Positions 421-55,447 of a DNA stretch of 64,000 nucleotides are shown here, one piece after another. The notes under the pieces are model-generated. The model made no database searches and was not told the origin of the DNA. It saw only the letters and a list, made by a program, of their open reading frames with translations. Made by a program: the position numbers and the translations under genes. This stretch comes from Heptranchias perlo (taxonomy: Eukaryota): NCBI RefSeq assembly GCF_035084215.1, contig NC_090347.1, forward strand, positions 39,990,001 to 40,054,000, given 5' to 3'. Each line of letters opens with the position of its first letter. Position 1 is the first letter of the stretch.

Positions 421-1200
421 TGCTTTCTTTACCTAAGGAAAATCCAATCCATGGCTGTTGGATAAACTGGTGTCAGAAAACATTTTCACTGAAAGGTGTT
501 ACCGTTTTTGTTTAGCCCTGTCTACGTTAACAAAGCACTCAACAGCGACAACTGTAAAACAAAGAAAGATCTGTCCTAGATTTTACCCGCTGGAGCAATA
601 AGCAGTGTCAGGAATTGTCCTGTGACAATAACAGGCAAGCCACAGACTTCCATTGAATTGAGACTGTGTGAGTTTTCATTTGCCTTCAAGGGGCATATCA
701 TTAAGATGGAGATGCCTATTTATCCTTTAGATAATTGAAAACCTACAAAGCAGATTTACTGTTGAAACACCAATCTCACATGGAGTGACGCACGACAGCT
801 AGCTGGGCTCTTTGTCCGTGGGGAATTAGGTTTTATTTTAATTGCAATGAATTTTTCGGTCTCATTTGTTGCCCTTTACTGAAGCAGAAAATCATTGAAT
901 AAAATGAATTGATATTTAGTGCAAACTTTCCAAAGGCAGGGACTCTGTGTGTGCGTTGCTGGGAGAATAAGCTGAACCTTCACAATCTTCCCAATGCTTT
1001 TATTCAGTTTTGTTTTTGAAGAGTTCTTCAGGGATTAGTGTCTCTCTCTCTCTTATAGCGGGAAGATTGTAAGTGCAGTGTTAAAGAACACGTTTAATGG
1101 GAAGTCCCGCAAGGCCTCGTGCTCACACGCAGCCCGCACGTGTTAGAAAAATGGCAGCAGCGCAGACGTAATTTTCCAACATGCGCAGGCTGCCTCCGAG

Positions 1201-1473
1201 TAGGGTTGCCAAACCTCCAGGATTGCCCTGGAGTCCCTAGGAATTGAAGATTAATCTCCAGGACACTGCTGCAAGCAAAACCCGGGAGAGAAATCATTGG
1301 GGCATTAAAAAAAATGGTGTGTTTGTTTCATTTTCTTTGAATACTTTTGTTTATTAATTATAGAAATATTGGAGATGGGAGTGAAAGGCTGTTTTACTGG
1401 ACGGGGTGGTTGGAGGTGGGAGGTTATATGATGAAACCTCCAGGAATATATCCAACCAGAGTTGGCAACCCTA
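1201..1473 (+). mobile_element. hAT (Blackjack-like) MITE, copy 1
   Basis: Termini TAGGGTTGCCAA...TTGGCAACCCTA; 8-bp flanks cctccgag/cgtgcgag (6/8); internal sequence shared with the 41038 and 53862 copies. Confidence 0.8.
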
Positions 1474-1695
1474 CGTGCGAGGCTCTGCCAGCTCCTCTGG
1501 GCCTAACAGAATTATAACATTTATGATTTTGCTACGAGTAGCGACTAGAGGGAATCTTTTCCTTGAAGAGTTAATGGCCTTACTGTTGATTGTGCTTAAA
1601 CAGCCACCAACCAAACAGGATACATTCCGAATTCTACAATTTCCTGCAATATTGAGTTTGATATCGGAAATTTCAGAAAAATTGCTAATCATGAC

Positions 1696-2085
1696 CTGAG
1701 CACAAAATCTAGGCTGATACTCCAGTGCAGTACTGAGGGAGTGCTGCATTGTTGGAGGTGCCGTCTTTCGGATGAGACGTAAAACCGAGGCCCCGTCTGC
1801 CCTCTCGGGTGAATGTAAAAGATCACATGGTGCTATTTCGAAGAAGAGCAGGGGAGATCTCCCTGGTGTATTGGCCATTATTTATCCCTCAACCAACATC
1901 GATAAAACTGATTATCCGGTCATTTATCTCATTATGCTTGTAGGTCCTTGCTGTGCGCAAATTGACTGCCACGTTTCCTACATTACAACAGTGACTACAT
2001 TTCAAAAGTACCTCATTGGCTGTAAAGCACTTTGAGATATCCTGAGGTCAGGAAAGGCGCTATATAAATGCAAGTTCTTTCTTTC
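1696..2085 (+). mobile_element. SacSINE1/DeuSINE-like SINE, 5'-truncated
   Basis: Core ggaggtgccgtctttcggatgagacgtaaaaccgagg; tail ggcgctatataaatgcaagttctttc. Confidence 0.9.
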
Positions 2086-2156
2086 TTTTTTTCTTTCTTG
2101 CTGACTTCATTATCTCTCAAGCAATTAGTGAGATGCTTAACTAGTGTAAGAGTTGT

Positions 2157-2580
2157 AATATAGGGCTGGTCCACCAATGCCTTGATTTTAAAATTCTCAT
2201 CCTCGTATTCAAATCCCTCCATTGTCTTCCTATCTCTGAAACCTCCTCCAGCCCTACAACCCTCCGAGAACTCTGCGTTCCTCCAACTCTGGCCTCTTGT
2301 GCATCCCCCACTTCCTTCGCCCCACTATTAGCGGCCATGTCTTCAGCCGTCTAGGCCCTAAGCTCTGGAATTCCCTCCCTAAACCTCTCTGCCTCTCTAC
2401 CTCTCTCTCCTCCTTTAAGAGGGTCCTTAAAACCTATCTCTTTGACCAAGCATTTGGTTACCTGTCCTAATATCGCCTTCATTTGGCTCGGAGTCAATTT
2501 TTGTCTCATAACGCTCCTGTGAAGCGCCTTGGGACTTTTTACTACATTAAAGGCGTTACATAAATGCAAGTTATTGTTGT
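2157..2580 (+). mobile_element. L2 LINE 3' fragment
   Basis: Decayed ORF2 end (FKILILVFKSLH..., KLWNSLP); tail shared with the SINEs, ending gttattgttgt. Confidence 0.85.
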
Positions 2581-2639
2581 TTATCTTTCATTTCCTTCAC
2601 TTTTCTCACTTCCTCATCTGAAGTTGATGATGGGTTGGT

Positions 2640-2985
2640 TTAGTGGCTGCCAGCAACCTTCTCTTACCTCCCCCAAGTTGTCATTATGCATGGTAGGCAA
2701 TTCAACCATGTAGGGCATCAATGTTGAACCCAATCTTGCTTTCATGCAGCATTCAAACACATGTTCATCCAGCAGATGTCAACAGATTGTGATCGGCAGT
2801 GAGAACTGTAGCTTTTTGCCCTCCCTGGTCCATGATTCTGAAGCCAAATTTAGAACGTTCACCGCTACCCCGACTAAGATTGGCCAACTCAATACAGATC
2901 AAGAAGGAACAAAGCTGGGATCTTCCTGATTTGCAGGGTTCAGCATGACACCACACAGTGCATTTATCCACTGAGCAATCAGGGG
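2640..2985 (-). mobile_element. Ancient tRNA SINE, AmnSINE2/MamSINE1-like, degenerate
   Basis: Reverse-complement similarity to the copies at 8250, 27765 and 61040; family name from recollection. Confidence 0.5.
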
Positions 2986-3102
2986 AACTGCTGCCTCACT
3001 GTTAACAAAGGTAATTGTCATGGAGACCATCATGGAGGTCGGGCTATCCCAGCATCCGCAGCTATAGGGAAAGTCCCCTATTAAATCTATAAGCCTTATG
3101 GA

Positions 3103-3515
3103 AAGAAAGAACCTGCATTTATATAGTGCCTTTCACAATCTCAGGACATTCCAAAGCGCTTTACAACTAATTAAGTACTTTTGAAGTGTGGTCACTGTAG
3201 GAAGCGTGGCAGCCAATTTGCGCACAGCAAGATCCAACAAACAGCAATGAGATGATGACCAGATAGTCTGCTCTAGTGAGGTTGGTTGAGGGATGCATAT
3301 TGGCCAGGATACCAGGGAGAACTCCCCAGCTCTTCTTTGAAGAATGCCGTTGGATCTACCTGAGAGGGCAGACGGGGCCTCGGTTTAATGTCTCATCCGA
3401 AAGACGACACCTCCGACAGTACTGCGCTCCCTCAGCTCAAGTCTCTCAGGTAGGACTTGAACCCACAATCTTCTAACTCAGAGGCGAGAGCGCTTCCACT
3501 GAGCCACAGCTGACA
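3103..3515 (-). mobile_element. SacSINE1/DeuSINE-like SINE
   Basis: Head-to-tail reverse-complement match to the other copies. Confidence 0.9.
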
Positions 3516-10966: not shown

Positions 10967-13261
10967 ACTAGCCCAATTTAAATCTTTTGCACGTGGTTTG
11001 TTACATTGACTGGCAGTTAGAACCAGACCAAGGCTGGGGTTAAACTGGTCATTACACTAATGGCTGCCAGCGGGCTTATCTTGAGGTGCCGATGTGGTCC
11101 GCCCTTGTCTCCCTGCTGCACAGTGGATCTCGCTCTCCTCTCACCCTTGTGAACAAATCACAAGCAACTTTTGAGTCATTTCAATAATTGCTTTAAGCAT
11201 CTTAACTTGCTGGAAAGAAAGTTGTCCAGCTCCTACAAAATACTACACATAAATACTACCATAAAATATAACAAAGAGAAGAGAGATGAGAGAATGAAGT
11301 CCAAATAATCCTGGAGGAGATGCTAAGGATGTAGGTCATTATCTTCGGAATCCGCAGAGCTGGGAACAGGTGGCGGAGCGGCTCCCAGCAATTTCAGGGC
11401 CTAAGACTTCAAATGAAGCCAGGAAATTAGGACCAGGGGGAGTTAGTTTAAATTAGTGAAAAATACATTTTGAACAGACGTTAGGAAGAATTTCTTTGCC
11501 CCAAACAGTGAGGAATGTTTGGAATATTCTGCCAGGTGGGGTAGTAAAGGCAAAAGCATTGCAGGCTGTTCCTGATTTTATGATTGTAGGCCTGGATTTT
11601 CCACTGTTGTGGTAGCAACACAATATTTGGAGTCTTGTTTTGCAAACGGTGGCATTTAGTTTCCAATCCTTATGCCTGGCGATAATGGGACCGTTAACGG
11701 CATCAAAATGGGGTCAGTGTCCTTTCCGCCCTGTTAACACCCGCAATGCGGCCGGCACCATTTTGAAAGCGGCCTAATGCCAGGTGTCCAAGCGCTGCCT
11801 GTTTCAGGTGATAGATTCATTTTAATACGGAAGTCGGGCTCCTACTTATGTCATAGGACCCCGATTGCCATTTTAGGTCGGAACTGGTCGGAGCCTGAGC
11901 AGTTGCAGCCGTCGACTAGTTCCACGAGCGATGGAAAACAATGTAGTCTTTTTTATGTGACTGGAAGGTGGGAGCACCGCGCCTGTAAGACAATCTCCAC
12001 TTATAACTCAGGGCTGAAGAGCAGACTCTAACACAAAGCTATTTTTGGTTTGCTCCTCCGTTGCTGGGCTCTATAACCCTGCTCCTTGTCATCCTACCTG
12101 AAGGCCTCACTGCTTCCAAAGACGTGACAGTTGAAAAGAAGTCCATCACTACAATCGCCTGCAGCTGCTTTGCCCGCACATGTCATAGGCCTTTGCTCCG
12201 AGCAGTGGAAACCTGATGCATACGGGACTCTTTTGTTTTTGCTTTGGAGCTGATTTTTGCGAATGGCATCACTAATGGCCGGGGGTGGGTGGGGGGGGCG
12301 ATTTTAAAACCTTTTACAACACGCCAAGAAAGTTGGAGAAGCATGAGACATCACTGGCAGGATTACGTGACACCAAGCTCTGGGAATAAGTCAAGTGGAA
12401 TGTAGTGGGAAATTCTTCGGGTGCCCCTTTGCTTGCCGAAGCTGCTCAGAGCAGGAGTAGTTAATTAATAGTAAATTATTAAATATTATCAATTATAAAT
12501 ATTAGTGTATTAATTAATTAATTAGTAGCTCATTCAGTCCCTTGAGTCTGTTCCGCCATTCAGTTAGATCATGGCTGATCTGTCCCTCAACTCCATTTAC
12601 CCGCCTTTGCTCCATATCCTTTGACAACCTTACCTAACAAAAAAATGTGTTTTAATTCACCATTAAATTGGCTGTATCCTTCTGGTGGGTGGAATCCCAA
12701 TCTGCAGAAAATGTGTGGGATTCCATAATGGCAGAAAATCCAATCCTCCAATTATAAGAACAGGAGCAGCCCCCAATGTGTTTGCCTTTACCACCACCTG
12801 GCAGATTATTCCAAACATTCCTCACTCTTTGGGGTAAAGAAATTCTTCCTAATGCCTGTTCAAAATGTATTTTTCACCAATTTAAACTAATGCCCTCTGG
12901 TCCTAATTTCCTGGTTTCATTTCAGGTCTTAGGCCCTGAAATTTCTGGGAGTATGGTCCGCCAGCGGAACAGAACCCCCCCGCCTGACTTAGTCCCAAAT
13001 CCTAAGGTTGGGGTCATTGACGTAGCTAGGGTGGGCTACCAAGGGTACATCAAGGGCAACATCCCCCTCCCCAATCCACCCTTGCAAAATGGCACAGCTC
13101 ACAGCCACTAAACCCTGAGGTCCCCAGAGGCCCATCGAGCCCAAAGAAAAAAATTCCAGTCTCCAGCTGCAACAGGAGAGATTTGCCCACTAGACAAAGT
13201 AATCAATCCTCTCTGGATTGAAGCCTATTTGCAGGTCTCAGAGGGATTCACACCAGCTTTC

Positions 13262-13918
13262 AACATCTCCATCTCCATGTCCTCCTCCTCCACCACTTGC
13301 TCCTCTTTCTCTATCTCCTCCTCCTCCTCCTCTACCCCTTCCCCTCCTCCATGTCATCCTCCTCCATGTCCTCATCCTCCACCACTTGCTCCTCCTCTAT
13401 CTCCATGTCCTCCTCCTCCACCACTTCCTCTTCTTCCTCCTCCTCCTCCTCTACCTCCTCCTCCTCTACCATTTCCTCTTCCTCCTCCTCCTCTACCTCC
13501 TCCTCCTCTACCATTTCCTCTTCCTCCTCCTCTTCTACCTCCATCTCCTCCACCACTTCCTCTTCTTCCTCCTCCTCCTCCTCTACCTCCTCCTCCTCTA
13601 CCATTTCCTCTTCCTCCTCCTCTTCTACCTCCGTCTCCTCCACCACTTTCTCTTCCTCCTCCTCCTCTTCCTCCTCCTCCACCACTTCCTCCTCCTCCTC
13701 TACCCCCTTCTCCTCCTCCATGTCCTCCTCCTCCACCACTTCCTCCTCCTCCTCTATTTCCATGTCATCCTCCTCCACCATCTCCATGTCCTCCTTCTCC
13801 TCCACCACTTCCTCCTCCTCCTCTATCTCCTTCTCCTTCTCCATGTCCTCCTCCTCCTCCACCTCCACCACCATTTCCTCCTCTTCCTGAATCTCCTTCT
13901 CCTCCTCCTTTTCCCCCA
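13262..13918. repeat. (TCC)n-rich pyrimidine low-complexity tract
   Basis: ~650 bp of mostly C/T with recurring ccaccacttcctc / ctaccatttcctc subunits. Confidence 0.95.
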
Positions 13919-15099: not shown

Positions 15100-15980
15100 A
15101 TCATAGAATCATACAGCACAGAAGGAGACCATTCGGCCCATCGTGCCTGTGCCAGCTCTTTGAAAGAGCTATCCAATTAGTCCCACTCCCCTGCTCTTTC
15201 TGCATAGCCCGGCATTTTTTTCCTTTTCATGTGTATATCCAATTCCCTTTTGAAAGTTACTATTGAATCTGCTTCCACCACCCTTTCAGGCAGCGCATTC
15301 CAGATCATTACAACTTGCTGCTTAAAAAAAAATTCTCCTCATCTCCCCTCTGGATCTTTTGGCAATTATTTTAAACCTGTGACCTCCGTTTACTGACCCC
15401 CCTACCACTGGAAACAGTTTCTCCTTATTTATTCTATCAAAACCCTTCAAAATTTGGAATACCTCTATTAAATCTCCCCTGAACCTTCTCTGCTCCACGG
15501 AGAACAACCCCAGCTTCTCCAGTCTCTCCACATAACTGAAGTCCCTCATCCCTGGTACCATTCTAGTAAATCTCCTCTGCACCCTCTCTAAGGCCTTGAC
15601 ATCTCTTCTAAAGTACTGCGCCCAGAATTGGACACAATACTCCAGCTGAGGCCGAACGAATGATTTCTAAAGATTTAGCATAGCTTCCTTGCTTTTGTAC
15701 TCTATGCCTTTATTCATAAAGCCCAGGATCCTGTATGTTTTTTTAACAGCCTTATTAACTTGTCCTGCCACCTGCAAAGATTTGCATATGTGAACCCCCA
15801 GGTCTCTCTGTTCCTGCACCCCCTTTAAAATTGTACCATTTAGTTTATATTGCCTCTCCTCATTCTTCCTACCAAAATGCATCACTTCTCACTTCTCTGT
15901 GTTAAATTTCATCTGCTATGTGTCTGCCCATTCCACCAGTCTGTCTATGTCCTCCTGAAGTCTGTTATTATCCTCCTTAA
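15100..15980 (-). mobile_element. CR1 LINE 3' fragment (~0.9 kb)
   Basis: MHFGRKN...EQRDLGVHI...QRRFTRMVPG...RGDLIEVF on the - strand; tail reads aatcatagaatcatac on +. Confidence 0.92.
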
Positions 15981-17822: not shown

Positions 17823-18151
17823 CATCAGACAGTGTGAAGAGTCCAGCCCTCACAACACCTGGATAGAGCAGCGCCCACACCAGCTCCCACCCCATCCCCC
17901 CGTCACCTTCCTGCACAAAACAGGTCTGCAACTACACATACACCCAATGTAGAGTGACCCAATGGGTGGCATCAAGTGTCGGTGTTCATGTTGAACCTCA
18001 TGAAAGGGCCCTATTACAGAAGCCAGTCAAGAATGGCCAAGACGTGGCAGTAGTGATGACAATAATAATATTTAATGTGGGTTTAACAAAAAGCTAATAT
18101 AAATAAAAAAATATGACCAACTGTCAAACACCCTTGTGCATCCCCTTCGTG

Positions 18152-20052
18152 CTTACAAACCTTCGCCTTTCTCTTCCGACTACTTCTACATGGTGCATCC
18201 CCTGTGGCTGCAGCAGAGGTAGTGGCAGGTTGCTCTTGTTCATGCCCTGACCGATTATATGCTTTGGACCTATGCCCTCTGGGTTTTGGTGCCCGTGAGG
18301 GCCCTTCCAAAGACTGCTCCACCTGTGCAGGGGCAGACTCGGCCACCTGGACAGGAGGCAGCATTGCGGGTACTGGTTGAGAGGAGGGCAACGGGAGCGA
18401 GGTGGGAGCGCTTTGAGTGGCGTCCCCACTTCCATGTCTCCTTTTGCCATCATTCCTCCCCTGATCCAGGGCCAAATCACTCCTATCACTCTGCTGGACG
18501 ACAATTTGGAGGACATGTGTGATGCCTTGTAAGGCCAGTGCTACTGTATCTGCCTGCCTGTTTAAGGCAGCAGAATGTTGCTCACTGTGAGTCCGAACGG
18601 CCATTGTCAGGGCCTGAATGGACTCATTTGTGAGCCATGCTTGAAGCTCAATGGAGGCTAGCCTTCCCTCCATCACAGGCATTCCCGCACTTATCCATGA
18701 CAGTATTTCAGAGAGTTGCTCATGTCCCTGTGCCACTCTCTCAGAGATTCCCTCCCGTACCTGTGCCACTATTCCACTCATGCAGGAGTTGGACTCCTCC
18801 ATCCTCTGCGCTATTGTGGAGAGTGCGCGTGGCACCTGTTCCAGCACCTCGCAAATGTTCTGCTGACCCTCGATCATTCTCCTTTTAAAGGGTGGCCCCC
18901 GAGATTCAGCATCTGTGTCCAGTTGAGCAGGGCCTGGAGAGGAGTGCTCCCACTGACGCGGACTCTCCACAGCTGCCCCTGCCACCAGTGTCTGCTCATG
19001 CTCACATGTGTGTGGTAATTCACCAGGTGCCCGCCCAACTAACTGAGGATAGGGACCCACTGAGGTGTGATTATCTGCGGTGGTAGATAGTTCGCTAAGA
19101 TGTGACGGTGCACCCTCAGAGGCCGGCAAGTCCTCTGAGGAATCGCCCTCTGCCGTCACAGTAGCCGCTGAAGGCCCTGTAATAGAACAGAAGGCAATAT
19201 TAAGCATGATCACAGATGTGTCATGTTGTAATGAGCATACTGAGGTGCTGAAGATGACAAGGCATGTTAACATCAATTCATATTGTGTGTGCTGAATGTT
19301 AAAGTTATGTCACCATATGTTTGTCGGGTGCCAGTCTCGGCATTCCCGATGGACAGGCACTCGAGGGTATGGCTCAAATCCAGCACCTCCTGCTCCGCGT
19401 CTGTGAGGACGACCTGATGTTGCAGCCCCCCTCCGGTCCTCGCCCTCTCCTATGCGATCTGAGCTCTCTTCTCCTATAAGGGGAGAAAGTACAGACGCAT
19501 GAGTGAGTGATGGTGACGTGGCCAACCGATGAAGGCATTGGTTTGGGTGCGGCTGACCGTGAAAGAGATGCATCAGAGGGTGAGTATGAGACAGAGCCAT
19601 GACATTGTATGAGGATTGGGTTAAGTGGTAGTGGTGGGGTGACTAATGGGGAGGTGAGGAAATGCTGAGGAAGTGCAGGTAAGTTGAGGATGAGCTTTGA
19701 GTGGGTGTGAGGAGTGATGTGATAGAGTAGTGTTGGCAGTGCACAATGAGTTGGGGGGGTGGGGGTGGTGATGAAGAAGACAGAATGTAGGAGAATGAGT
19801 AAGTGTACTCACTTTGGCTGACCCAGTTAGGTCATTGAGGTGCTTCCTGCACTGGATCCAGGTGCGGGAGATGTTGTTGCTGCCGGTGACCTCCTCTGCC
19901 ACCTTGAGCCAAGCTTTCTTGGTGGCAGAGGCAGGCCACTTCCTACTGTCCGCCGGGTAAAAGAGGTCCCTCCTCCTCCTCACCCCATCCAGTAGCATCT
20001 GGAGTGAGGCATCGTTGAATCTTGAAGCAGCCTTTCCCCTGTGCTGCTCCAT
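18152..20052 (-). pseudogene. Harbinger Myb/SANT-like DNA-binding protein, 3 exons (20052-19813, 19473-19314, 19176-~18152)
   Basis: RF..ASLQMLLDGV...KKAWLKVAEEV...RTWIQCRKHLNDL; GT-AG introns in phase 0 and phase 1; RTGGG motif; in-frame TAG in exon 2; basic C-terminal RKRK. Confidence 0.85.
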
Positions 20053-20364
20053 TGTGCTGTGTGTGGTGTTTGCTCCAGGAGCAGACATTGGAGGACTGCC
20101 CCTTTAAATAGAGCTCCTCCAGCTGACAGCCTGTGATGCGGGTGCGCAGTCCGCCCGCTGCGCAGCTTTCGGACGGCAAAACGGAAGCCACGTTCAGTGG
20201 CTCCAATTGACTTGCAGTCGCGTGCGAAAAGGACATTTTTTATTGGGCAGGTTACCCATGCGCCCAATCGCCCCCCCCCCCCCGCCCCCCGCTGCCATCC
20301 CGCCTCCACGTGGGGCCCACATGTCCTACTCACTCCCAGTCTGTATAGCAGAACAGAGAAGTGG

Positions 20365-21660
20365 GTGACAGCTGTGGATCAGTGGTAGCACTCTTACTTC
20401 TGAGCCATAAGGTCATGAGTTTAAGTCCCACTCCAGGGAGGTTAGCACATAATCCTGGCTGACCCTCCGATGCAGTATTGAGGGAGTGCTGCACTGTCGG
20501 ACGTGCCGTCTTTTGGATGAGACGTTGGGTGGAAGTGAAATATCCCACGGCACTATTTCAAAAAAGAACAGGCCAGTGTCCTGACCAATATTTACTCCTC
20601 AACCAACATCATTAAAACAGATTATCTGGTCATTACCACATTGCTGTTTGTGGGATCTTGCTGTGCGCAAATTGGCTGCCGTGTTCCTTACATTACAACA
20701 GTAACTACAATAGGGGTATGGTAGCATAGCGGTTATGTTACTGGACTAGTAATCCGGAGTCAAGAATTCAAATCCTGGCATGGGTTTAAATTCAATTAAT
20801 TAAATAAAAATCTGGAATAAAAATAAAACTAGTATCAGTAATGGTGTCTATGAAACTACTGGATTATTGTAAAAACCCATCTGGTTTAGTAATGCCCTTT
20901 AGGGAAGAAAACCTGCCATCCTTACCCGGTCTGGTCTATATGTGACTCCATACCCACAGCAATTTGGTTGATTCTTAATCGCCCATGAAATGGCCCCGAG
21001 CAAGCCACCTCCTGACATCCCCAAAGCCTTTCCACCACCTATAAAGCACAAGTCAGGAATGTGATGGAATATTCTCCACTTGCCTGGATGAGTGCAGCTC
21101 CAACAACACTCAAGAAGCTCAACACCATCCAGGACAAAGCAGCCCACTTGATTGGCACCCCATCCACCACCCTAAACATTCACTCCCTTCACCACTGGCG
21201 CACCGTGGCTGCAGTGTGTACCATCTACAGGATGCACTGCAGCAACTCGCCAAGGCTTCTTCAACAGCACCTCCCAAACCCACGACCTCTATCAACTAGA
21301 AGAACAAGGGCAGCAGGCACATGGGAACAACACCACCTGCACGTTCCCCTCCAAGTCACACACCATCCCGACTTGGAAATATATCGCCGTTCCTTCATTG
21401 TCGCTGGGTCAAAATCCTGGAACTCCCTACCTAACAGCACTATGGGAGAACCTTCACCACACGGACTGCAGCGGCTCACCACCACCTTCTCAAGGGCAAT
21501 TAGGGATGGGCAATAAATGCTGGCCTTGCCAGCGAAGCCCACATCCCATGAAAGAATTAAAAAAAAACACTTCAAAAGTACTTCATTGCGCGTAAAGCAC
21601 TTTGGGACATCCTGAGGTCGTAAAAGGTGCTATATAAATGAAAGTCTTTCAAGTCTTTCT
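20365..21660 (+). mobile_element. SacSINE1-like SINE interrupted at ~20711-21567 by a tRNA-headed LINE derivative
   Basis: SINE breaks after cagtaactaca and resumes at acacttcaaaagtacttcattg. Confidence 0.85.
20712..21567 (+). mobile_element. tRNA-like head fused to the last ~550 bp of a CR1/Zenon-like LINE
   Basis: A-box TAGCATAGCGG; junction gcaagcCACctcctgac; MEYSPLAW...WNSLP; A-rich end. Confidence 0.85.
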
Positions 21661-21698
21661 TTCTAGGAAAACACTGAAAACAAAAGGTACCATCTGAG

Positions 21699-22098
21699 GT
21701 TATACACTTATCTTCCCTTCGAAGTCCAAACCAGCTACCTCACTGCATCTGCCACAAAGCATGGAGTGAAAGAAGCACACACATAGTATGAAACGACAGT
21801 ATGTAATCCAAAAGTATTTTTACCTGTGAGCTCTTTCTGGCACAGCTTTATGTTGGCCTATTTTGCTCACAGTGCATACAGTAGCATTCACTATGATACA
21901 GTAAGCCTTGGTGTACAACATGGTTTATGGGTCCCTTTCCAAGAGAGAAACCAAATAAAACATTCTCTCTGTAACGCCTCATCCACTGTAACATGTCCAT
22001 CATTGTAACTATCCTCTTGAGACCTCTAAAGTAATGAACATTGCTTGTGGCTCCCTCATTAATAGAGAGAAACGACATAAAACACCCTGTCTGGAGAC
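21699..22098 (+). repeat. Second copy of segment B (9998-10397)
   Basis: Direct alignment gttatacacttatcttcccttcg...gtctggagac. Confidence 0.92.
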
Positions 22099-22440
22099 AT
22101 TCCCCTCACTGCAATAATCTCCTCCAGCTTGCTTACTACTCCCTTAGAAACCATATAAAGCTCTGTTACACGAAAGGAAATAGCAATGATTGAGTTGTGT
22201 ACACCATATTGCTAAAGCTGCCTCCAAGAAGCTTGGATGCCAGACACTTCCTTGCCCTTCAAGAACCCCTCGATAAAGCCCAAGTCTATCTGGAATATGG
22301 TCCCATGTCTGGGAAGGGTTTTCCCTCACTCCTGGATGGAATATAAGTAAAAACCTTAAAACATGATCATTCTGTCACTTTTATCTTCAACCTCTTAGAG
22401 ATGAAACATTTGTTGCCTTTCTATATTTTATCAAAAATAT

Positions 22441-25340
22441 TTTTTTTTATTCGTTCATGGGATGTGGGTGTCGCTGGCGAGGCCAGCATTTATTGCCCAT
22501 CCCTAATTGCCCTTGAGAAGGTGGTGGTGAGCCGTCTTCTTGAACCGCTGCAGTCCATGTGGTGAAGGTTCTCCCACAGTGCTGTTAGGAAGGGAGTTCC
22601 AGGATTTTGATCCAGCAACGATGAAGGAACGGTGATATATTTCCAAGTCGGGATGGTGTGTGACTTGGAGGGGAACGTGCAGGTGGTGTTGTTCCCATGT
22701 GCCTGCTGCTCTTGTCCTTCTAGGTGGTAGAGGTCGCGGGTTTGGGAGGTGCTATCGAAGAAGCCTTGGCGAGTTGCTGCAGTGCATCCTGTGGATGGTA
22801 CACACTGCAGCCACAGTGCGCCGGTGGTGAAGGGAGTGAATGTTTAGGGTGGTGGATGGGGTGCCAATCAAGCGGGCTGCTTTGTCCTGGATGGTGTCGA
22901 GCTTCTTGAGTGTTGTTGGAGCTGCACTCATCCAGGCAAGTGGAGAGTATTCCATCACACTCCTGACTTGTGCCTTGCAGATGGTGGAAAGGCTTTGGGG
23001 AGTCAGGAGGTGAGTCACTCGCCACAGAATACCCAGCCTCTGACCTGCTCTTGTAGCCACAGTATTTATATGGCTGGTCCAGTTAAGTTTCTGGTCAATG
23101 GTGACCCCCAGGATGTTGATGGTGGGGGATTTGGCAATGGTAATGCCATTGAATGTCAAGGGGAGGTGGTTAGATTCTCTCTTGTTGGAGATGGTCATTG
23201 CCTGGCACTTATCTGGTGCGAATGTTACTTGCCACTTATGAGCCCAAGCCTGGATGTTGTCCAGGTCTTGCTGCATGCGGGCTCAGACTGCTTCATTATC
23301 TGAGGGGTTGCGAATGGAACTGAACACTGTGCAATCATCAGCGAACATCCCCATTTCTGACCTTATGATGGAGGGAAGGTCATTGATGAAGCAGCTGAAG
23401 ATGTTTGAGCATAGGACACTGCCCTGAGGAACTCCTGCAGCAATGCCCTGGGGCTGAGATGATTGGCCTCCAACAACCACAACCATCTTCCTTTGTGCTA
23501 GGTATGATTCCAGCCACTGGAGAGTTTTCCCCCTGATTCCCATTGACTTCAATTTTACGAGGGCTCCTTGGGACAACACTCAGTCAAATGCTGCCTTGAT
23601 GTCAAGGGCAGTCACTCTCACCTCACCTCTGGAATTCAGCTCTTTTGTCCATGTTTGGACCAAGGCTGTAATGAGGTCTGGAGCCGAGTTGTCCTGGCGG
23701 AACCCAAACTGAGCATCGGTGAGTAGGTTATTGGTGAGTGAGTGACGCTTGATAGCACTGTCGACGACACCTTCCATCACTTTGCTGATGATTGAGAGTA
23801 GACTGATGGGGCGGTAATTGGCCGGATTGGATTTGTCCTGCTTTTTGTGGACAGGACATACCTGGGCAATTTTCTACATTGTCGGGCAGATGCCAGTGTT
23901 GTAGCTGTACTGGAACAGCTTGGCTAGAGGCGCAGCTAGTTCTGGAGCACAAGTCTTCAGCACTACAGCCGGTATGTTGTCGGGGCCCATTGCCTTTGCT
24001 GTATCCAGTGCACTCAGCCGTTTCTTGATATCACGTGGAGTGAATCGAATTGGCTGAAGACTGGCTTCTATGATGGTGGGGATAGCGGGAGGAGGCCGAG
24101 ATGGATCATCTACTCGGCACTTCTGGCTGAAGATGGTTGCAAATGCTTCAGCCTTGTCTTTTGCACTCACGTGCTGGACACCGCCATCATTGAGGATGGG
24201 GATGTTTGCAGAGCCTCCTCCTCCCATTAGTTGTTTAATTGTCCATCACCATTCACGACTGGATGTGGCAGGACTGCAGAGCTTTGATCTGATCCGTTGG
24301 TTGTGGAATCGCTTAGCTCTGTCTATAGCATGTTGCTTCCGCTGTTTAGCATGCATGTAGTCCTGAGTTGTAGCTTCACCAGGTTGGCACCTCCTTTTTA
24401 GGTACGCCTGGTGCTGCTCCTGGCATGCTCTTCTACACTCCTCATTGAACCAGGGTTGATCCCCTGGCTTGTTGGTAATGGTAGAGTGAGGAATATGCCG
24501 GGCCATGAAGTTACAGATTGTGCTGGAATACAATTCTGCTGCTGCTGATGGCCCACAGCACCTCATGGATGTCCAGTTTTGAGCTGCTAGATCTGTTCTG
24601 AATCTATCCCTTTTAGCACAGTGGTAGTGCCACACAACACGTTGGATGGTGTCCTCAGTGCAAAGACGGGACTTCATCTCCACGAGGACTGTGCGGTGGT
24701 CACTCCTACAAATACTGTCATGGACAGATGCATTTGCGACAGGTAGATTGGTGAGGACGAGGTCAAGTAAGTTTTTCCCTCGTGTTGGCTCACTCACTAC
24801 CTGCCGCAGTCCCAGTCTGACAGTTATGTCCTTCAGGACTCGGCCAGTAGTGGTGCTACCGAGCCACTCTTGGTGATGGACATTGAAGTCCCCCACCCAG
24901 AGTACATTCTGTGCCCTTGCTACCCTCAATGCTTCCTCCAAGTGGTGTTCAACATGGAGGAGGACTGATTCATCAGCTGAGGGAGGACGGTAGGTGGTAA
25001 TCAGCAGATTTAATAGCGAGATTTTACAACTGAGTGGCTTGCTAGGCCATTTCAGAGGGCAATTAAGAATCAACCACATTGCTGTGGGTCTGGAGTCACA
25101 TGTAGGCCAGACCGGGATAAGGATGGCAGGTTTCCTTCCCTGAAGAACCAGATGGGTTTTTATGACAATCCAATAGTTTCATGGCCACCATTACTGATAC
25201 CAGTATTTTAATTCCAGATTTTATTTCATTAATTGAATTTAAATTCCCCAGCTGCCGTGGCGGGAACTCGTGACTCTGGATTATTAGTCCAGACCTCTGG
25301 ATTACTAGTCTCGTAACGTAACCACTATGCTACCGTACCC
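22441..25340 (-). mobile_element. CR1/Zenon-like LINE (partial APE endonuclease + RT) with tRNA-like 5' head
   Basis: YRPP, GDFNVH, LDLVL, SDH, GPDNI, NYRPISLL, QFGFR, GVPQGSVL, FADD, KAQVR..MEY. One frame 25079-22503 with five premature stops and no frameshift; head ~25010-25340. Confidence 0.9.
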
Positions 25341-25547
25341 TATATCATTAATATTCTGGTCATTGCTCTTCTCTTGTTTATCCTAAGCCCCCAATATCCC
25401 ACCCTACACAATCTTCCTCCTCCCTGTACCCTCGCTGTTGAAATCAAGACTCATCACACCTTTTCTTGCACTAACTCATTCTCTCCCAGACCTCAGATCT
25501 CTGGAATGTCTAACCTCCCTCTGACTTCCCTTCCTCTTACGATCAAT

Positions 25548-25765
25548 AGGTGTCAGCCGTGGCTCAGTAGGTAGCACTTTCACCTCTGAGTCACCAGGTT
25601 GTGGGTTCTAAGTCCCACTCCAGAGACTTGAGCACATAATCCAGGCTGACGCTCCCATTGCAGTACTGAGGGAGTGCTACACTGTCGGAGGTACCGTCTT
25701 TCGGATGAGATGTTAAAATGAAGCTCTGTCTGCCCTCTCAGGTGGTTGTAAATGATCCCATGGCA
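25548..25765 (+). mobile_element. SacSINE1-like SINE 5' half
   Basis: gtggctcagtaggtagcac...tgagtc head followed by the Deu core. Confidence 0.85.
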
Positions 25766-25799
25766 CAACATGGCTTATGAGTCCCGTGGCACTAATGAG

Positions 25800-26555
25800 A
25801 ATAGGGATAGGGCCACTCAGGGAGACACAAGATAAACTCACAGGCAATGACAGCGAAATGGCAGAAATATTAAATAATTACTTTGCCTCAGTATTTACCA
25901 GGAAGACTAACATGGTGGGCATGACATTAAAAGAAGAGATCAAATAAGGTATAAAGACATTTAAGATAGAAAGGGAGGAGATAATTGATAAACTAAACAA
26001 ACATAGAGAGGATAAAACCCCTGCTCCGCATGGATTGCATCCGTGCATATTAAAAGAATTTAGAGAGATAGCAGAGGCTCTATAACAAATATATAAAAAT
26101 TCATTTGAAAAATAGTGCCTGAGGACTGGCGGACAGCTAAGTGATTCCGATATTTAAAACAACAATAACTTGCATTTATATAGCGCCTTTAATGTAGTAA
26201 AGCGTCCCAAGGGAAATAGTACAAGTCCAGGGAACTACAGACCAATTAGCTTAATGTCAGTGGTAGGAAAAATAATGGAATCCTTACTCAAAGAAGTAAT
26301 AGAAAAACATCTATTAACAAAAATATAATAAAGATTAGTCAGCACAGATTTCAAAAGGGAAAGTCATACTTGACCAACCTTATTGAATTCTTTGAAGAAG
26401 GAACACAAAGGGTCGATAAGGGTAATACAATCAATGTAATATATTTGGATTTTCAGAAGGCTTTCGATAAGGTACCGGCTCGTGACTAAGGTCCGAGCAT
26501 GTGGAGTCAGGGGACGAGTAGCAGAATGGATGGCAAACCGGCTACAAAATAGAAA
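25800..26555 (+). mobile_element. Internal CR1 ORF2 fragment (RT N-terminal part) with a ~50-bp L2/SINE tail insert at ~26160-26210
   Basis: [45 protein letters not shown] remnants. Confidence 0.85.
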
Positions 26556-26559
26556 GTTG

Positions 26560-26945
26560 GGGTACAGTAGCATAGTAGTTCTGTTACAGGACTAATAATC
26601 TAGAGAACATGAGTTCAAATCCCAGCCTGGCAGTTTGAGAATTTGAATTCAGTGTTTTTAAAATCTGGAAATAAAAAGCTGTTTTCAGTAAAAAGTTACC
26701 ATGAAGCTGTCAGATTGTCATAAAAACCCAACTGGTTCACTAATGTTAGGGAAGGAAGCCTGCCATCCTTACTCAGTCTGGCCTATATGTGACTCCAGAC
26801 CCAGGTCAATGTGGTCGACTCTTAACTGCCCTCTGAAGTGGCCTAGCAAGCCACTCAGTTGTATCAAACTCGGGGCAACTAGGGATGGGCAGTGAATGTT
26901 GGTCTTGCCAGCGACACCCACGTCTTGAGAATGAACAATAAAAAA
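26560..26945 (+). mobile_element. SINE-sized member of the tRNA-headed family (head + ~70 bp LINE tail)
   Basis: A-box-like TAGCATAGTAG, B-box GAGTTCAAATCC; tail gggcaactagggatgggc...gccagcgacacccac and A-rich end. Confidence 0.85.
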
Positions 26946-28001: not shown

Positions 28002-31000
28002 TAACTGGTGTTCTCAAAAGGTGTACAAAGTAGAAGATTATCTGCTGAAGCACAGAGTGCATTGCAAAGAGAGTGGATTGTGAACAGAGTGGGAACTTGA
28101 GAATTTGGTGTAGAGGGGGAAGGAGGTGCGAAATTTTTAATTTTTTTTTAAATAGTAAAAAAACCCAAAACAGACTAAAAAGTAATTATCGATAAATAAA
28201 TATAGACCAAGATACAGCAGAGCAGGTTGTGTGTCTGGACCGCAGTATGTGGGAGTTTGTGGACAGCGAGAATGTCTTGTGCGAACACATCTGCAGTAGA
28301 TGTCTCCGCCTCGAATTTCTCCAGTTCAGAGTCATTGAGCTGGATGCGAGTTGGAGACACTCTGACACATGAGGGAGGGGGAGGAGTGTCTGGACAGTTT
28401 GCTCCAGACCTCGATCACACCTTGTAGAGAGGCACACGATCTGAACCCGGTTGGTGCACAGAGTAAGGGGAACCCAGGTGAGATAGAGAACGAGCATCCG
28501 CAGAAACTGATCCTATCCAACAGGTACAATGTACTTGCTACCTGTGAGGATAAGGATGAAGACTGTCAGAAGGACAGTCAGAATGCTGACCGTGGCACCC
28601 TGGAGCTGGAGGCTGTCCAAAGGGAGGATGAGGAGGAGGAGCTTGATGTGGTAGCTTTAGGGGAGTCAATAATTAGGGGGAGAGATAGCATCCTTTGTAA
28701 GCAGGATCGAGAGTCCCACATAGTATATTGCCTACCTGGTGCCAGGGTGAGGGAGAGGGAGAATCCAGTCATTGTGGTCCATGTTGGGACCAACAACATA
28801 GGAAAGAGTAGGCAAGAGGTCCTGTTCAGAGAGTACCAGGCGCTCGGAGCTAAATTAAAAAAACAGGACCTCAAGGGTTATAATCTCTGGATTATTACCC
28901 GAGCCACGGGCAAATTGGCGTAGATTAGGGAGATGAACACGTGGCTGAAGGAGTGGTGTGGGAAATAGAGGTTCCATTTCATGGGACACTGGTACCAGTA
29001 CTGGGAAAGGAAGGAACTGTACCGTTGGGACAGGCTCCACCTGAACTGGGCTGGGACCAGAGTCCTAGCGGAAAGGATAAATGGGGCAGTCATAAGGACT
29101 TTAAACTAGTAAATGGGGAGGAGTTTTCAGGTGAGAAAGGTAGTATAAATAATAATTCTAAAACAAAACGAAAAGGAAGAGGGTAGACTAATAGTCAGAA
29201 ATTCTGCTTTAGGCACTCCAGGTAAAGGGAAAATTAAAAGATGTAAAGTAATTAAATCAGGAGAGAGAAATAAGAAATGCGTGAGAAAAACATTTGAGCA
29301 GAAGGACAGGTTTGGGTGTGTGGCCCAAATAAGCATTCTTCATACAAATGCATGGAGTATAAGGAATAAATTGAATGAATTACAGGCCCAAATTCAACTT
29401 AGAAGGTACGACATGGTAGCCATTACTGAGACATGGCTGCAAGACAGTCAGAACTGGGAACTGAATATACCAGGTTATAAGGTCTATAGGAAGGATAGGG
29501 AAACTGGCAGAGGGGAGGAGCCTTAGTGATTAAGGATGAAATTACTTCAATGATAAGAGAGGATAGAATGAGAGGTAAGCAGGCAGTGGAGACTTTATGG
29601 GTAGAATTAAGAAATAGAAAAGGAATTAAAACTGTAGTGAGAATTGTGTATAAGCCCCCTGGTAGCAGCTGTGAAGTGGCAGAATATATAAATGTAGAGA
29701 TTAGACAAGCATGTAGTAAAGGCAGAATGGTTTTAATGGGGGATTTTAACTTTCATATAGAGTGTGATAACCAGACGAGCTCATGTCAGAAAGGTAGTGA
29801 ATTTCTTGAGTGTGTTCAGGACAGCTTTCTGCAACAATAAGTCCTAGAACCAACAAGGGGGCAGGCCATATTAGATTTAATAATGAGTGATGAGCCAGAT
29901 TTAGTTAACAGCCTAACGGTACGTGAACATTTATCTAATAACGATTATTTATCCAATAGCGATCATAATATGATCGAGTTCAACGTTGTGTTTGAAAGGG
30001 AGGATCTCGTATCAGCCTCTAAGATTCTAAATTTAGGTAAGGCCAACTTCAACGGGATGAGACAGAGACTGTCCACAGTAAACTGGGCAAATCTGTTAAT
30101 GGGTAAAACGACAGAAGATCAGTGGGAGGTGTTCAAAAAAGAATTTAACGTGATACAGAACCAGTTTATACCCCTAAAGGGCAAGAACTCTACTTGTCAA
30201 AAAAAAAAGCCATGGACGACAAAAGAGGTAGGGGACAACATAAAACTAAAGGAAAAAGCAAACAAAAATGCAAAGAAATGCACAGATCCTGGCGATTGGG
30301 AGAGATACAAAGAACAGCAAAGAGTGACAAAACAGATAGTAAGAGCTACAAAAAGGGAATAGGAAAGGAAACTTGCAAGGGATATCAAAATTAACACAAA
30401 ATTTTTTTTAAGTTATATTAGGAAAAAGAGGGTGGTCAAGAGCAATGTGGGCCCCGTAAAATCTGATAATGGTGATATTGAAAATGAAAATAAGGAAATG
30501 GCGGACATGTTAAATAATTATTTTGCGTCAGTATTTACAGTAGAGGAAGAGGATAGCATGTCGGACACCCCAAGGAAACTAATTTTGAATCAGGGACAGG
30601 GACTCACCATAATTAACGTAAGCAAATTCACAGTAATGAAGAAAATAATGGCACTAAAGAGTGACAAATCCCCAGGACCCGAGGATTTTCATCCTACGGT
30701 TTTAAAGGAAGTAGGTGAGAACATTAAAGATGCTCTAACTATAATCTTCCAACTTTCTCTCTATTCAGGAACCATTCCATTAGATTGGAAAATTACACAT
30801 ATCACTGCGCTATTTAAGAAAGGTGAGAGAGGGAAACCAGGGAATTATAGACCAATTAGTCTAATATCTGTTGTCAGGAAATTACTAGAGTCTATAATTA
30901 AGGATAGAATGACTGAATACCTTGAAAATTTTCAGCTGATCAGAGAGAGCCAGTGTGGATTTGTAAAGGGTAGGTCATGCCTGACGAAGCTGATTGGATT

Positions 31001-32240
31001 TTTTGGAGAGGTGACTAAAGTGGTGGATAGGGGAATGTCTATGGATGTTGTTTATATGAACTTCCAGAAGGCATCTGATAAAGTCCCTCATAAGAGACTG
31101 TTAGCTAAAGTTGAAGCTCATGGAATCCAGAGCAAATTATTGACCTGGTTAGGAAATTGGCTGAGCAGCAGGAGACAGAGAGTATGGATAATGGGCAGAT
31201 ACTCGAATTGGCAGGTGTGATTAATGGTGTCCCACAGGGATCTGTGTTGGGGCCTCAACTATTCACTGTATTTATTAATGACTTAGATGATGGGATAGAG
31301 AGCCACACATTCAAGTTTGTCGATGACCCAAAGATAGGCAGCATTGTAAGCAATGTAGATGGAAGCACATAATTACAGAGTGCTATTAATAGATTAAGTG
31401 AATGGGCAAAACAGTGGCAAATGGATTTCGGTATAGGCAAGTGTGAGGTCATCCACTTTGGACCTAAAAAGAATAGATCAGTGTACATTCTAAATGGTGA
31501 AAAGCTCGAAAGTGTGGAGATCCAAAGAGACTTAGGGGTCCATGTACAAAGATCATTAAAATGTCATGGAGAGGTACATAAAATAATCAAAAAGACTATT
31601 TGAATGCCCGCCTTTATATCTAGTGGACTAGAATACAAGGGGGGGGTGGGGGGTAGAAGTTATACTACAGCTATACAAAGCCCTGGTTAGACCACATCTG
31701 GAGTACTGTGTTCAGTTCTGGGCACTGCACCTTAGGAAGGATATATTGGCTTTGGAGGGAGTGCAGCGTAGATTTACGAGAATGATACCTGGACTCCAAG
31801 GGTTAAATTACGATGAGACATTACTCAAACTAGGGTTGCATTCCCTGGAATTTAGAAGATTAAAGGGTGATTTGATCGAAGTTTTCAAGATATTTAGGGG
31901 AATTGATAGGGTAGATAGAGAGAAACTATTTCCGCTGGTTGGGGAGTCTAGGACTAGGAGACATAGCCCAAAAATTAGAACCAGGACTTTCAGAAGTGAA
32001 GTTAGGAAACACTTCTACATAGAAAGGGTGGTAGAAGTTTGGAACTCTCTTCTGCAAATGTCAGTTGATGCTCGCTCAATTATTAATTTTAAATCTGAGA
32101 CTGATAGATTTTTGTTAACCAAAGGGATATGGGGCTAAGGCAAGTATATGGAGTTAGGTCACAGGTCAGCCATGACCTCATTGAATGGCAGAACAGGCTC
32201 AAGGGGCTAAATGGCCTACTCCTGTTCCTATGTTCCTATG
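28002..32240 (+). mobile_element. Near full-length CR1 LINE, inactivated (ORF1 ~28210-29105; ORF2 ~29330-32138)
   Basis: ORF1 Cys-rich N-terminus and SGNH-esterase motifs (GESIIR, CLPGARV, VHVGTNN). ORF2 [44 protein letters not shown]. Tail (gttcctat)n. Many stops and frameshifts. Confidence 0.95.
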
Positions 32241-49969: not shown

Positions 49970-50330
49970 GGCACATCATGGCTGCAGCGTGAACTATCTA
50001 CAGGATGCACTGCAGCAACTCGCCAAGGCTTCTTCGACAACACCTCCCAAACCCACCACTTCCACCTCCTAGAAGGGCAAGGGACACCATCACCTCCAAG
50101 TTCCCCTCCAAGTCATCCTGACTTGGACAGATATCCCCCACCATTTCTTCATCATCACAGGATCTTCAAAATCCTGGGATTCCTCACCTATCGGATTGTA
50201 GGAGCATCTTCACCACACAGATTGCAGCGGTTCAAGAAGAAATCCCACCACCGCCTTCTCAAGGGCCACTAGGGATGGGCAATAAATGCCGGCCTTGCTA
50301 GCGACGCCCATATCCCGAGAATTAATTTTT
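49970..50330 (+). mobile_element. CR1/Zenon-like LINE 3' fragment without head
   Basis: Similar to 21195-21560 (caggatgcactgcagcaactcgcc...gggatgggcaataaatgc). Confidence 0.85.
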
Positions 50331-54720: not shown

Positions 54721-55447
54721 GTGAGTTTGCTGGGTTTACGATGTTAAACTCAGCCGCAAGTTGCCCTTCAGTCTGGCGGCTCGGCTCTTTCTCGTCCCGG
54801 GTTACAATGTGTCGCTTTGTTGTAACTACTTTTCATTGAACTCTTTCTCCGAGTCCGGGCGCTCTCTCTCTCTCGCTCTCTCCTCCCGGGGCTTCCACCC
54901 GGGTCCGGTTCCCATCCAAACCTTTCTCCCAGGTCTGACCCGGGACTAGTCTCCCTCCACCCGGGACTGGTCTCCTCCTCTTCCCCCCCCCCCCCCCCCA
55001 GAGTTAGGTCCAGTCGCCGTCCTCTGGCTCTGATCCGGGTTCAGTCTCCTCCTCCTTCCCGGGAGAGTCCCTGCAGTGTAACCTCACCGCTTTACCTGGT
55101 GCGGCCCGGATCGCCTGCCTGGTCCCGGAGCAATATCGGGCGGGACCGACTGCTGCGGCCACATCTCCCGGGTTATTTTCACTCGTTGCCCCCCCCCCCC
55201 CGCCGCCCCCGGGTCGGGTACACCAGTCGGCGGTACTCAGGGAGAGGGACCCTCGGGCTCTCCCCCCCCCCCCCCCCCGCCTGAACCTGTTCCACTATAG
55301 CGGGGTCTGAAATGGGGGAACTTCTTCCGGAACTCAGGAAAGTTTGGAGGATCCCCAATTGAAATTCTTGGGGCCAGAGTCCCACTAACTGATTGGACCG
55401 GGGATGATAGGGGCCGTGCCCTGGGCAGCGGTTACCTTTGGCGCGGG

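Follow-up and report, generated by a model that had tools for sequence, protein, structure and literature searches.

Deleted copies of a tRNA-headed Zenon retrotransposon in Heptranchias perlo: a T-poor sense strand, likely RNA polymerase III transcription and likely AUG-less translation

Zenon copies in the window

The window analysed here is a 64,000-nucleotide stretch of the Heptranchias perlo genome (assembly GCF_035084215.1, contig NC_090347.1, positions 39,990,001 to 40,054,000 of the forward strand; positions below count from its first letter), and it carries three copies of an element related to the Zenon long interspersed nuclear elements (LINEs) of elasmobranchs. Copy A lies at 20713-21567 (+), copy B at 22441-25340 (-) and copy C at 26560-26945 (+). 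All three open with a common, tRNA-derived head of about 300-340 bp and then continue into differing lengths of one LINE before ending in the same 3' tail and A-run. Pairwise alignment of the heads (B against A, 81% over 275 bp, E 3e-68; B against C, 78% over 279 bp, E 5e-59) bears out the original prediction that one head occurs at these three places. Alignment to L077, an intact genomic copy of 3307 bp used as the reference for copy coordinates, confirms that the copies hold different lengths of the LINE and that each keeps its 3' end.

Copy A corresponds to L077 1-321 joined to 2735-3307. Its head and leader (20714..21008, +) are of the young-subfamily type, at 79% to L077 with small deletions, and group with the heads of young LINEs with a tree support of 100/100. 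The LINE 3' part, made up of the end of the open reading frame (ORF), the tail and the A-run, follows at 21006..21567 (+) with a 3-base overlap at the join, 2.4 kb having been deleted at a singleton junction. Copy B corresponds to L077 1-341, 6 filler bases and 740-3306. Its head and leader (25014..25340, -) are also of the young type, with a duplicated anticodon arm, and are 88% identical to L077. The filler (25008..25013, -) marks a 398-bp deletion, again with a singleton junction, that took out the spacer together with the endonuclease's N-terminal half. The remainder of the ORF (C-terminal endonuclease and reverse transcriptase), the 3' tail and the A-run occupy 22441..25007 (-) at 96% to L077; this part has five premature in-frame stops, no frameshift, and zero runs of four T (T4 runs) on its sense strand. 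With 398 bp missing and five stops, B is not the full element.

Copy C corresponds to L077 1-~335 plus 3235-3307. Its tRNA-like segment (26560..26634, +), recognised from the sequence and an alignment to tRNA-Thr, has an A-box-like motif at about 26568-26578 and a B box at 26611-26622. The remaining head and leader (26635..26869, +) are of the old-subfamily type and contain a T5 tract at 26655-26659. They are followed by 76 bp of LINE tail and A-run (26870..26945, +), across a junction that a pattern search found at 45 other loci. All three junctions had been placed just after gcaagccac, which is true of A only; B and C extend 14-20 bases further. On these alignments, A, B and C are almost certainly internally deleted copies of the elasmobranch Zenon LINE, none of them intact.

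The full-length element

Elasmobranch Zenons have been described as elements of about 3.3 kb with a single ORF for an apurinic/apyrimidinic endonuclease (APE) and a reverse transcriptase (RT), without ORF1, ending in poly(A) and absent from the repeat repository (Stuart et al. 2026, PMC13343379). The published consensuses, SquAca_Zenon-1 to -3, CarCar, RhiTyp, ScyCan and HypSab_Zenon-1, share more than 84% identity among themselves (PMC13343379), and a match by eye over the first 400 letters places them in the same family as the window copies.

We searched the H. perlo genome with the head-free endonuclease part of copy B as query (30 loci; best 40 scored of 3193 candidates). The head was found 358-407 bp upstream of the endonuclease match in 26 of the 29 non-window loci, and the remaining three are 5'-truncated inside the same element. 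The element starts at the same first base at 18 loci and no more than 7 bases away at 25. Complete head-to-poly(A) units of 3262-3330 bp were present at 17 of the 20 loci fetched whole, three of them with an unbroken frame of 965-990 codons that matches PF03372/PF14529 (APE) and PF00078 (RVT_1) above the Pfam cut-offs. Each unit begins at the first base of the tRNA-like segment and consists of a head of about 340 bp, an APE-RT frame of about 970 codons, a short tail and poly(A); the nearest homologues are 35-42% identical. The nearest protein match with a name is a shark gene model, which, like the family's match to the published shark and ray consensuses, points to an elasmobranch genome. As expected of the Zenon class, there is one ORF for APE and RT without ORF1, only about 340 bp lie upstream of the frame, and A-runs end the complete copies and most of 104 3' ends. 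The 17 complete units and three unbroken frames support the proposal of an autonomous-type, single-ORF LINE that begins with a tRNA-derived head.

In a genome sample of 54 evenly placed 10-kb stretches (540 kb), the family accounts for 28 elements and 27,067 bp, which is 5.0% of the sample, or about 170,000 fragments by extrapolation. Four ORF-bearing copies in this sample extend 5' of the ORF, and all four start in the head. A different 5' untranslated region (UTR) or ORF1 on full-length copies, which had been set beforehand as the test of the proposal, did not occur: neither was seen among the endonuclease-search loci, in the genome sample or in the elasmobranch consensuses. The idea that the head stands in place of ORF1 did not survive, because Zenons of all phyla are described as lacking ORF1 (PMC13343379). 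Since this absence runs throughout the clade, the head replaced the 5' UTR or promoter and not ORF1.

Contigs from four runs of four organisms (run type guessed) were used for presence and boundaries only, not for start, strand or level. They covered all 30 bins of a full-length copy in every run, and 28 contigs of one run leave the element at the head's first base. The unique junctions of A and B might suggest LINE fragments nested by chance in short interspersed nuclear elements (SINEs), or an assembly artefact; yet no SINE tail follows either copy, contigs cover the element end to end in all four organisms and the published consensuses have the same 5' end, so that we give this explanation next to no weight. 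The tRNA-headed elasmobranch Zenon LINE, together with its recurrent deletion derivatives and amplified SINE-sized subfamilies, is almost certainly real as a structure.

Several observations accompany these searches. Four organisms (runs X1-X4 and X18-X23) contain 63-64% of the 31-mers sampled from a young copy, which would imply very close family members, through slow evolution or transfer. Target-site duplications were looked for and gave no consistent signal, and no relatives were found in viral contigs. When a fragment with 80% identity served as query, most of the copies retrieved were young and no separate old family emerged; the old subfamily was reached by pattern search. One shark gene model named aldo-keto reductase (P0027) includes, at 79% identity, 28% of the ORF region used as query, and is either an annotation artefact or an exonised LINE.

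Origin of the head

The A-box-like and B-box-like motifs and the CTGGA..TCCAG arm of the original prediction are visible in the sequence. ARAGORN made no tRNA call in the window, and calls four distinct head sequences elsewhere in the genome as tRNA. Heads were compared with seven tRNA types of this genome, the Gln genes being retrieved with a Gln-specific pattern. The head of one genomic copy (L012) has 47/72 identities to tRNA-Gln, and that of copy C has 49/71 aligned identities to tRNA-Thr, with 9 gap columns and with tRNA-Gln almost as good. The suggested likeness to tRNA-Gln is not confirmed, Gln being the best of the seven types for one head and Thr(TGT) marginally better for two, those of A and C. 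One young head matched the Rfam tRNA model at 18.6 bits, below the cut-off of 29, and contained no Rfam ribozyme or internal ribosome entry site (IRES) family; an Rfam scan of the window region gave nothing meaningful. The anticodon arm is duplicated in many copies, and a conserved leader of about 250 bp follows the tRNA-like segment. The sequence has the layout of a type 2 RNA polymerase III (Pol III) promoter, with A and B boxes at tRNA-like positions and the element 5' end at +1.

Inspection by eye of the first 400 letters shows this head and spacer in all seven elasmobranch Zenon consensuses and in none of three from hagfish and coelacanth (PMC13343379 supplement). Capture of the head, from a tRNA or a SINE, probably happened a single time, before the split of sharks and rays. 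Among distant relatives from metagenomes (best 80 of 494), many of which have little upstream DNA, no B-box pattern was matched upstream, and ARAGORN at relaxed settings made scattered calls there in 15. One of these relatives (L211) has a relaxed sense-strand tRNA call at 133-223, about 110 bp upstream of its ORF, and a body with 10 T4 runs. The Zenon head is probably distinct from the 80-bp V-domain of the SINE HE1.

Deletion junctions and short derivatives

The junctions of A and B were each spanned by 0 of 39 other scored matches (40 scored of 1288 candidates for A and of 633 for B), and neither copy shows the amplification as a unit that characterises a SINE2 family. Among 29 other young-type heads, 18 run straight into the ORF and another 2 reach it past an insertion; 7 jump downstream, one ends at the A-rich spacer and one stops at position 1147. 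The seven jumps use seven different junctions with 5' breakpoints at 301-478; as 1.5 kb was visible, deletions start preferentially at the head end.

A different picture was obtained for copy C. None of 29 other C-like heads runs into the ORF, and 28 are followed by the LINE tail (its last 30-130 bp), ten of them with one junction. Pattern searches returned at least 97 matches to this shared junction, that of a longer SINE, and, with up to 2 mismatches, at least 46 to C's own junction including C itself, against 0 for the reversed-pattern control in each case. The recurrence at 45 other loci places C in an amplified SINE-sized subfamily, which may have been derived from the longer SINE by a second deletion. 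Measured by the SINE2 criteria of SINEBase, C's class is short, interspersed and non-coding (386 bp, without ORF), has tRNA similarity of at least 60% over at least 60 nt (seven tRNA types compared), and shares its 3' tail with the partner LINE in 28 of the 29 C-like heads. It passes 100 copies with 97 plus 46, both lower bounds, neither junction pattern reaching 100 alone. An older LINE subfamily, in which C's head type runs into the spacer, gave 36 pattern matches, and most fetched copies continue into the ORF. A tree of 42 heads puts A and B among the young LINEs (100/100). Outside this group, SINEs, old LINEs and C are mixed together; the bootstrap is not fully converged, and the tree does not give the order of old SINE and old LINE.

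Of the three copies, A and B are therefore deletions of the young LINE that each arose once, and C belongs to an old SINE-sized subfamily that has been amplified; they are stages of one process and not a lineage. Head-to-tail deletions are recurrent, with 5' breakpoints near the head end, and at least two such junctions have been amplified. The proposed series of internal-deletion derivatives stands in so far as the short copies are best read as deletions and C's junction is amplified (46 matches); the events are independent, not nested.

The alternative already offered in the original prediction was repeated template switching between a free-standing SINE and its partner LINE, the latter having another 5' end. 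The clustering of 5' breakpoints at the head end (301-478 in 7/7 young deletions, 321 in A and 341 in B) is what jumps onto short head RNAs would produce, and the intermixed old heads and a head-only insertion can be read in the same way. However, no LINE with another 5' end was found in the three sets searched, A and B carry young-LINE heads, and the seven young short forms among the 29 heads share no junction. Moreover, the SINE junctions take in the start of the LINE's spacer, and in old LINEs this sequence carries on into the ORF (36 matches). As an account of the full-length element, template switching with a separate SINE is already largely refuted, and we regard it as very improbable; jumps from one RNA of the headed LINE to another may take place. 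The head-only insertion (L351, 1501-1863) ends at the A-rich spacer, as if internally primed or copied from a short head RNA. Near the breakpoint cluster of the young subfamily, about 10 bases close to the leader end (L077 ~290-301) are complementary to the tail (~3231-3242); old copies mismatch at two positions of this complementarity, without covariation.

Depletion of T-runs

Vertebrate Pol III terminates at runs of at least four T. When the last 25 bases were excluded, 16 of the 17 complete copies had no T4 run, against about 4.4 expected in each from composition. Their T3 runs number 6-10 against about 22 expected, and A-runs are at or above expectation. The same depletion is seen in family fragments of the genome sample (2 T4 runs against 34.5 expected) and in 21 old-type bodies (4 against 31.4). 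By contrast, 75 RT-related fragments of other LINEs in the genome sample have 184 T4 runs against 120.7 expected. All 80 of the distant relatives have at least two T4 runs, and their T3 observed/expected ratio is never below 0.585, compared with about 0.3-0.45 in the Zenon family. Under a synonymous recoding null that uses the element's own synonymous base frequencies, 5 T3 runs were observed against 19.0 expected (0 of 2000 recodings as low) and 0 T4 runs against 3.8 (P 0.01).

A terminal T-run as a built-in terminator was considered and rejected, as only 6/40 young 3' ends have one and the number increases with divergence. Across the 104 3' ends, A-tails with T4 runs rise from 6/40 to 7/32 and 10/32 with divergence, a recurrent change of an A-run into a T-run plus A-run.

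A frame without a conserved AUG

The frame opens after an in-frame TAA at the leader end. No conserved AUG precedes the endonuclease, and the first Met of the intact frames lies at codon 242-284, past most of that domain. The longest ORF2s in a published table for four elasmobranch families, 584-747 aa (PMC13343379), are, we infer, what AUG-based calling would give. Spacer length variants keep the frame in 31/36 old copies (12/17 of those with non-modal lengths) and in 33/41 young ones, which suggests that the spacer is translated. Non-AUG initiation just behind the leader is our best reading of these features.

An upstream AUG frame in the young leader, which overlaps the ORF in -1, was also considered. 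The corresponding position in old copies is ATG in 7, ACG in 3 and ACA in 2 (28 of 45 unscorable); this mix is that of a decayed ACG, and the upstream frame was therefore set aside. No canonical slippery site was seen at the -1 overlap.

Which polymerase transcribes the element

A sense strand that is nearly free of T4 runs and an ORF without a conserved AUG point, in combination, to Pol III transcription and non-AUG translation. We consider it probable that the full-length LINE is transcribed by Pol III. Given Pol III, the chances of a near-cognate start just behind a structured leader seem about even.

A number of observations weigh against this interpretation. The absence of T4 runs from a single copy is weak evidence (P about 0.09 keeping codon usage, about 0.6 under an order-2 Markov null), the copies, being related, are not independent, and C4 runs too are scarce in old bodies (36 against 74.8 expected). 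A T4-5 tract lies about 20 nt behind the B box in 7 of 13 scorable old LINE heads (12 unscorable) and behind it in 5 of 11 scorable SINE heads (9 unscorable), as in copy C, and is a possible terminator, although A-tails likewise acquire T4 runs as they age. The element carries no built-in terminator, and AATAAA motifs occur in its tail. Loss of ORF1 predates the head, so the absence of ORF1 is no argument for Pol III, and according to SINEBase A and B boxes only indicate the use of this polymerase (PMC3531059). On the side of translation, an in-frame ATG precedes the endonuclease in 11 of the 33 young copies whose frame is intact; eight of these ATGs fall at a single ACG codon, and a minor AUG-bearing subfamily may exist among the young copies. 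Seven of those eight came from a search biased to that letter; in an unbiased set the count is 1/19, in agreement with a CpG decay rate of 4.4%. The triplet spacer indels may be due to slippage of 3- and 15-nt repeats. Finally, the consensus fold of the leader is weak (-9.4 kcal/mol), with a double change in 1/24 pairs, and its one A-U/U-A swap tracks the two subfamilies.

In a rival reading, the structure and deletion history are as described and the full-length LINE is an RNA polymerase II (Pol II) transcript, with the head a relic or serving as a Pol II promoter or 5' UTR. T-run depletion would then stem from codon bias or from avoidance of U-rich decay or of poly(A) signals, and only the SINE-sized derivatives would use Pol III. 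Such a transcript would fit the poly(A) tail and AATAAA motifs and the many old heads with T4-5 tracts, a capped RNA is the simplest source of a 970-codon protein, and the literature calls LINEs Pol II transcripts (PMC10886601, PMC5786205). It fits less well with element 5' ends that coincide with the first base of the tRNA-like segment, with a head kept across sharks and a ray, and with a T-run depletion that is strand- and family-specific, being found neither in the 80 relatives nor in this genome's other LINEs; an AUG would also be expected from a capped RNA. We judge Pol II transcription of the parent unlikely, while granting it real weight.

A split life cycle, in which Pol III makes the template RNA and the protein is supplied in trans, either from Pol II read-through of host genes in which intact copies lie or from rare copies with a CpG-decay AUG, would explain the T-free body without cap-independent translation. 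The ACG-to-ATG changes fall at a usable in-frame position, and the non-coding deletion derivatives are themselves mobilised in trans. Purely trans action should nevertheless let the ORF decay, yet 3/17 young copies are unbroken and 20/29 young heads still run into the ORF, and we hold this possibility to be improbable.

Surroundings of the copies and other features of the window

A fourth, older 3' fragment of the same Zenon LINE lies at 49979..50316 (+), 77% identical to B over 362 columns. Copies A and B stand tail to tail, with 461-nt arms (21018-21478 and 22541-23001) that are 94% complementary and 1062 nt apart, and a transcript spanning both arms would fold into a long hairpin. Copy A is nested in another abundant tRNA-type SINE (about 20352-20711 and 21568-21658; families D14-D16, 7-9 window copies), which we take to be probably the Deu-domain SacSINE1. 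RT-related fragments of other LINEs, with 23-32% protein identity to the Zenon family, occur at 26209-26559, 29589-32021 and 15556-15963, and copy C is inserted at the end of the first of these.

The window also contains tandem arrays from 36372 (43-bp unit, 60+ copies), at 55438-56450 (33-bp G-rich unit, about 30 copies) and at 13253-13885 (imperfect 9/12/15-bp units), and a 408-codon stop-free frame at 18083-19309 (-) with no Pfam match. Two long tandem tRNA gene arrays were noted elsewhere, one tRNA-Gln-like with a period of about 3.1 kb (G000:C38) and one including Cys, Thr, Ile and others (G000:C23).

Discussion

The mechanism that we propose would start with TFIIIC and Pol III acting on the A and B boxes of the head, with initiation at +1. 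Pol III would traverse the T-free body until it met a T-run in the flanking DNA, and translation of the uncapped RNA would begin at a near-cognate codon just behind the structured leader. The encoded protein would then prime reverse transcription on the LINE tail. Singletons like A and B would arise by repair or template jumping between the tail and the end of the head. A deletion product that retains promoter and tail could act as a SINE without further assembly, as C's subfamily apparently did; with both parts already in place, single deletions would give finished SINE families. The explanation as a whole, of deleted Zenon copies with a T-poor sense strand, likely Pol III transcription and likely AUG-less translation, strikes us as reasonably probable. 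The fullest form of the claim is more tentative and falls a little short of an even chance: an autonomous protein-coding retrotransposon on Pol III, whose head was captured before the shark-ray split, whose 3 kb of coding sequence were purged of T-runs, whose 970-residue APE-RT is made without an AUG from uncapped RNA and which founds SINE families by single deletions.

The sequence of the family is already published; the head, the T-run depletion, the missing AUG and the derived SINEs are not remarked upon in the accessible text of that report (PMC13343379), in which the words 'tRNA' and 'polymerase' do not occur, nor does 'tRNA' in its supplement. The element is likewise not described in the accessible parts of PMC3747384, PMC4824008, PMC11481361 and PMC5499810, the last of which concerns other SINEs. 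Full-text searches of the accessible literature brought up no account of an autonomous LINE that has a tRNA head or is transcribed by Pol III.

The closest parallel for the deletions is Persaeus SIDE with its lepidopteran Zenon parent, in which repeated independent internal deletions likewise gave short elements of 5' and 3' parts that amplify (Wang et al. 2019, PMC6740152). Persaeus is described as being without tRNA homology or a Pol III promoter (PMC6740152), whereas the elasmobranch parent carries a tRNA head, so that its deletion product is SINE-like at birth. The bipartite SINEs Bov-tA, Mar-1, AfroSINE and SINE2-1_ACar also combine a tRNA head with a 5' part and the 3' end of a LINE (PMC5786205). 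In the model of Kojima, a template switch adds their head once an RTE or Vingi LINE has undergone deletion, and Pol II is assumed to transcribe the autonomous LINE (PMC5786205). The elasmobranch Zenon differs in that the head is on the coding element first and in belonging to a CR1-group clade. The same paper says in one sentence that RTE-1_DAn and relatives hold tRNA-like sequence, giving in its accessible text no position, promoter function or T content (PMC5786205); this is a possible undescribed precedent in another clade, and a full-text literature search for RTE-1_DAn by name gave only that paper.

Other cartilaginous-fish SINEs with tRNA heads, HE1/HER1 (V-SINE) and SacSINE1 or CmiSINE with L2-2_CM, have a tail in common with a CR1-group LINE (PMC3747384, PMC4824008, PMC5499810). 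They are set apart by those descriptions, in which only the 3' tail is shared within each pair. The TRIMp3 elements Cassandra, Helenus and Ajax similarly belong to a class normally transcribed by Pol II and have a Pol III promoter derived from a small RNA (PMC10886601). They are, however, non-coding, non-autonomous elements with long terminal repeats (LTRs), of 0.3-1.3 kb (PMC10886601), compared with a protein-coding Zenon of 3.3 kb. Pol III RNAs can retrotranspose without ORF1p in human cells (Kroutter 2009, PMC2666806).

LINEs are held to be protein-coding Pol II elements and SINEs non-coding Pol III elements (Kojima 2024, PMC10886601; SINEBase, PMC3531059). If our interpretation is true, an element with a SINE head and a coding body, at about 5% of the sampled genome and with unbroken frames, breaks this division of polymerases. 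Pol III would then make a translatable 3.3-kb RNA in a vertebrate, a natural case for cap- and AUG-independent translation, and the route from LINE to SINE would reverse the order of the standard model. Whatever the polymerase, a single genome holds a parent LINE, one-off deletions and amplified SINE-sized subfamilies side by side, so that one route of SINE birth can be observed directly.

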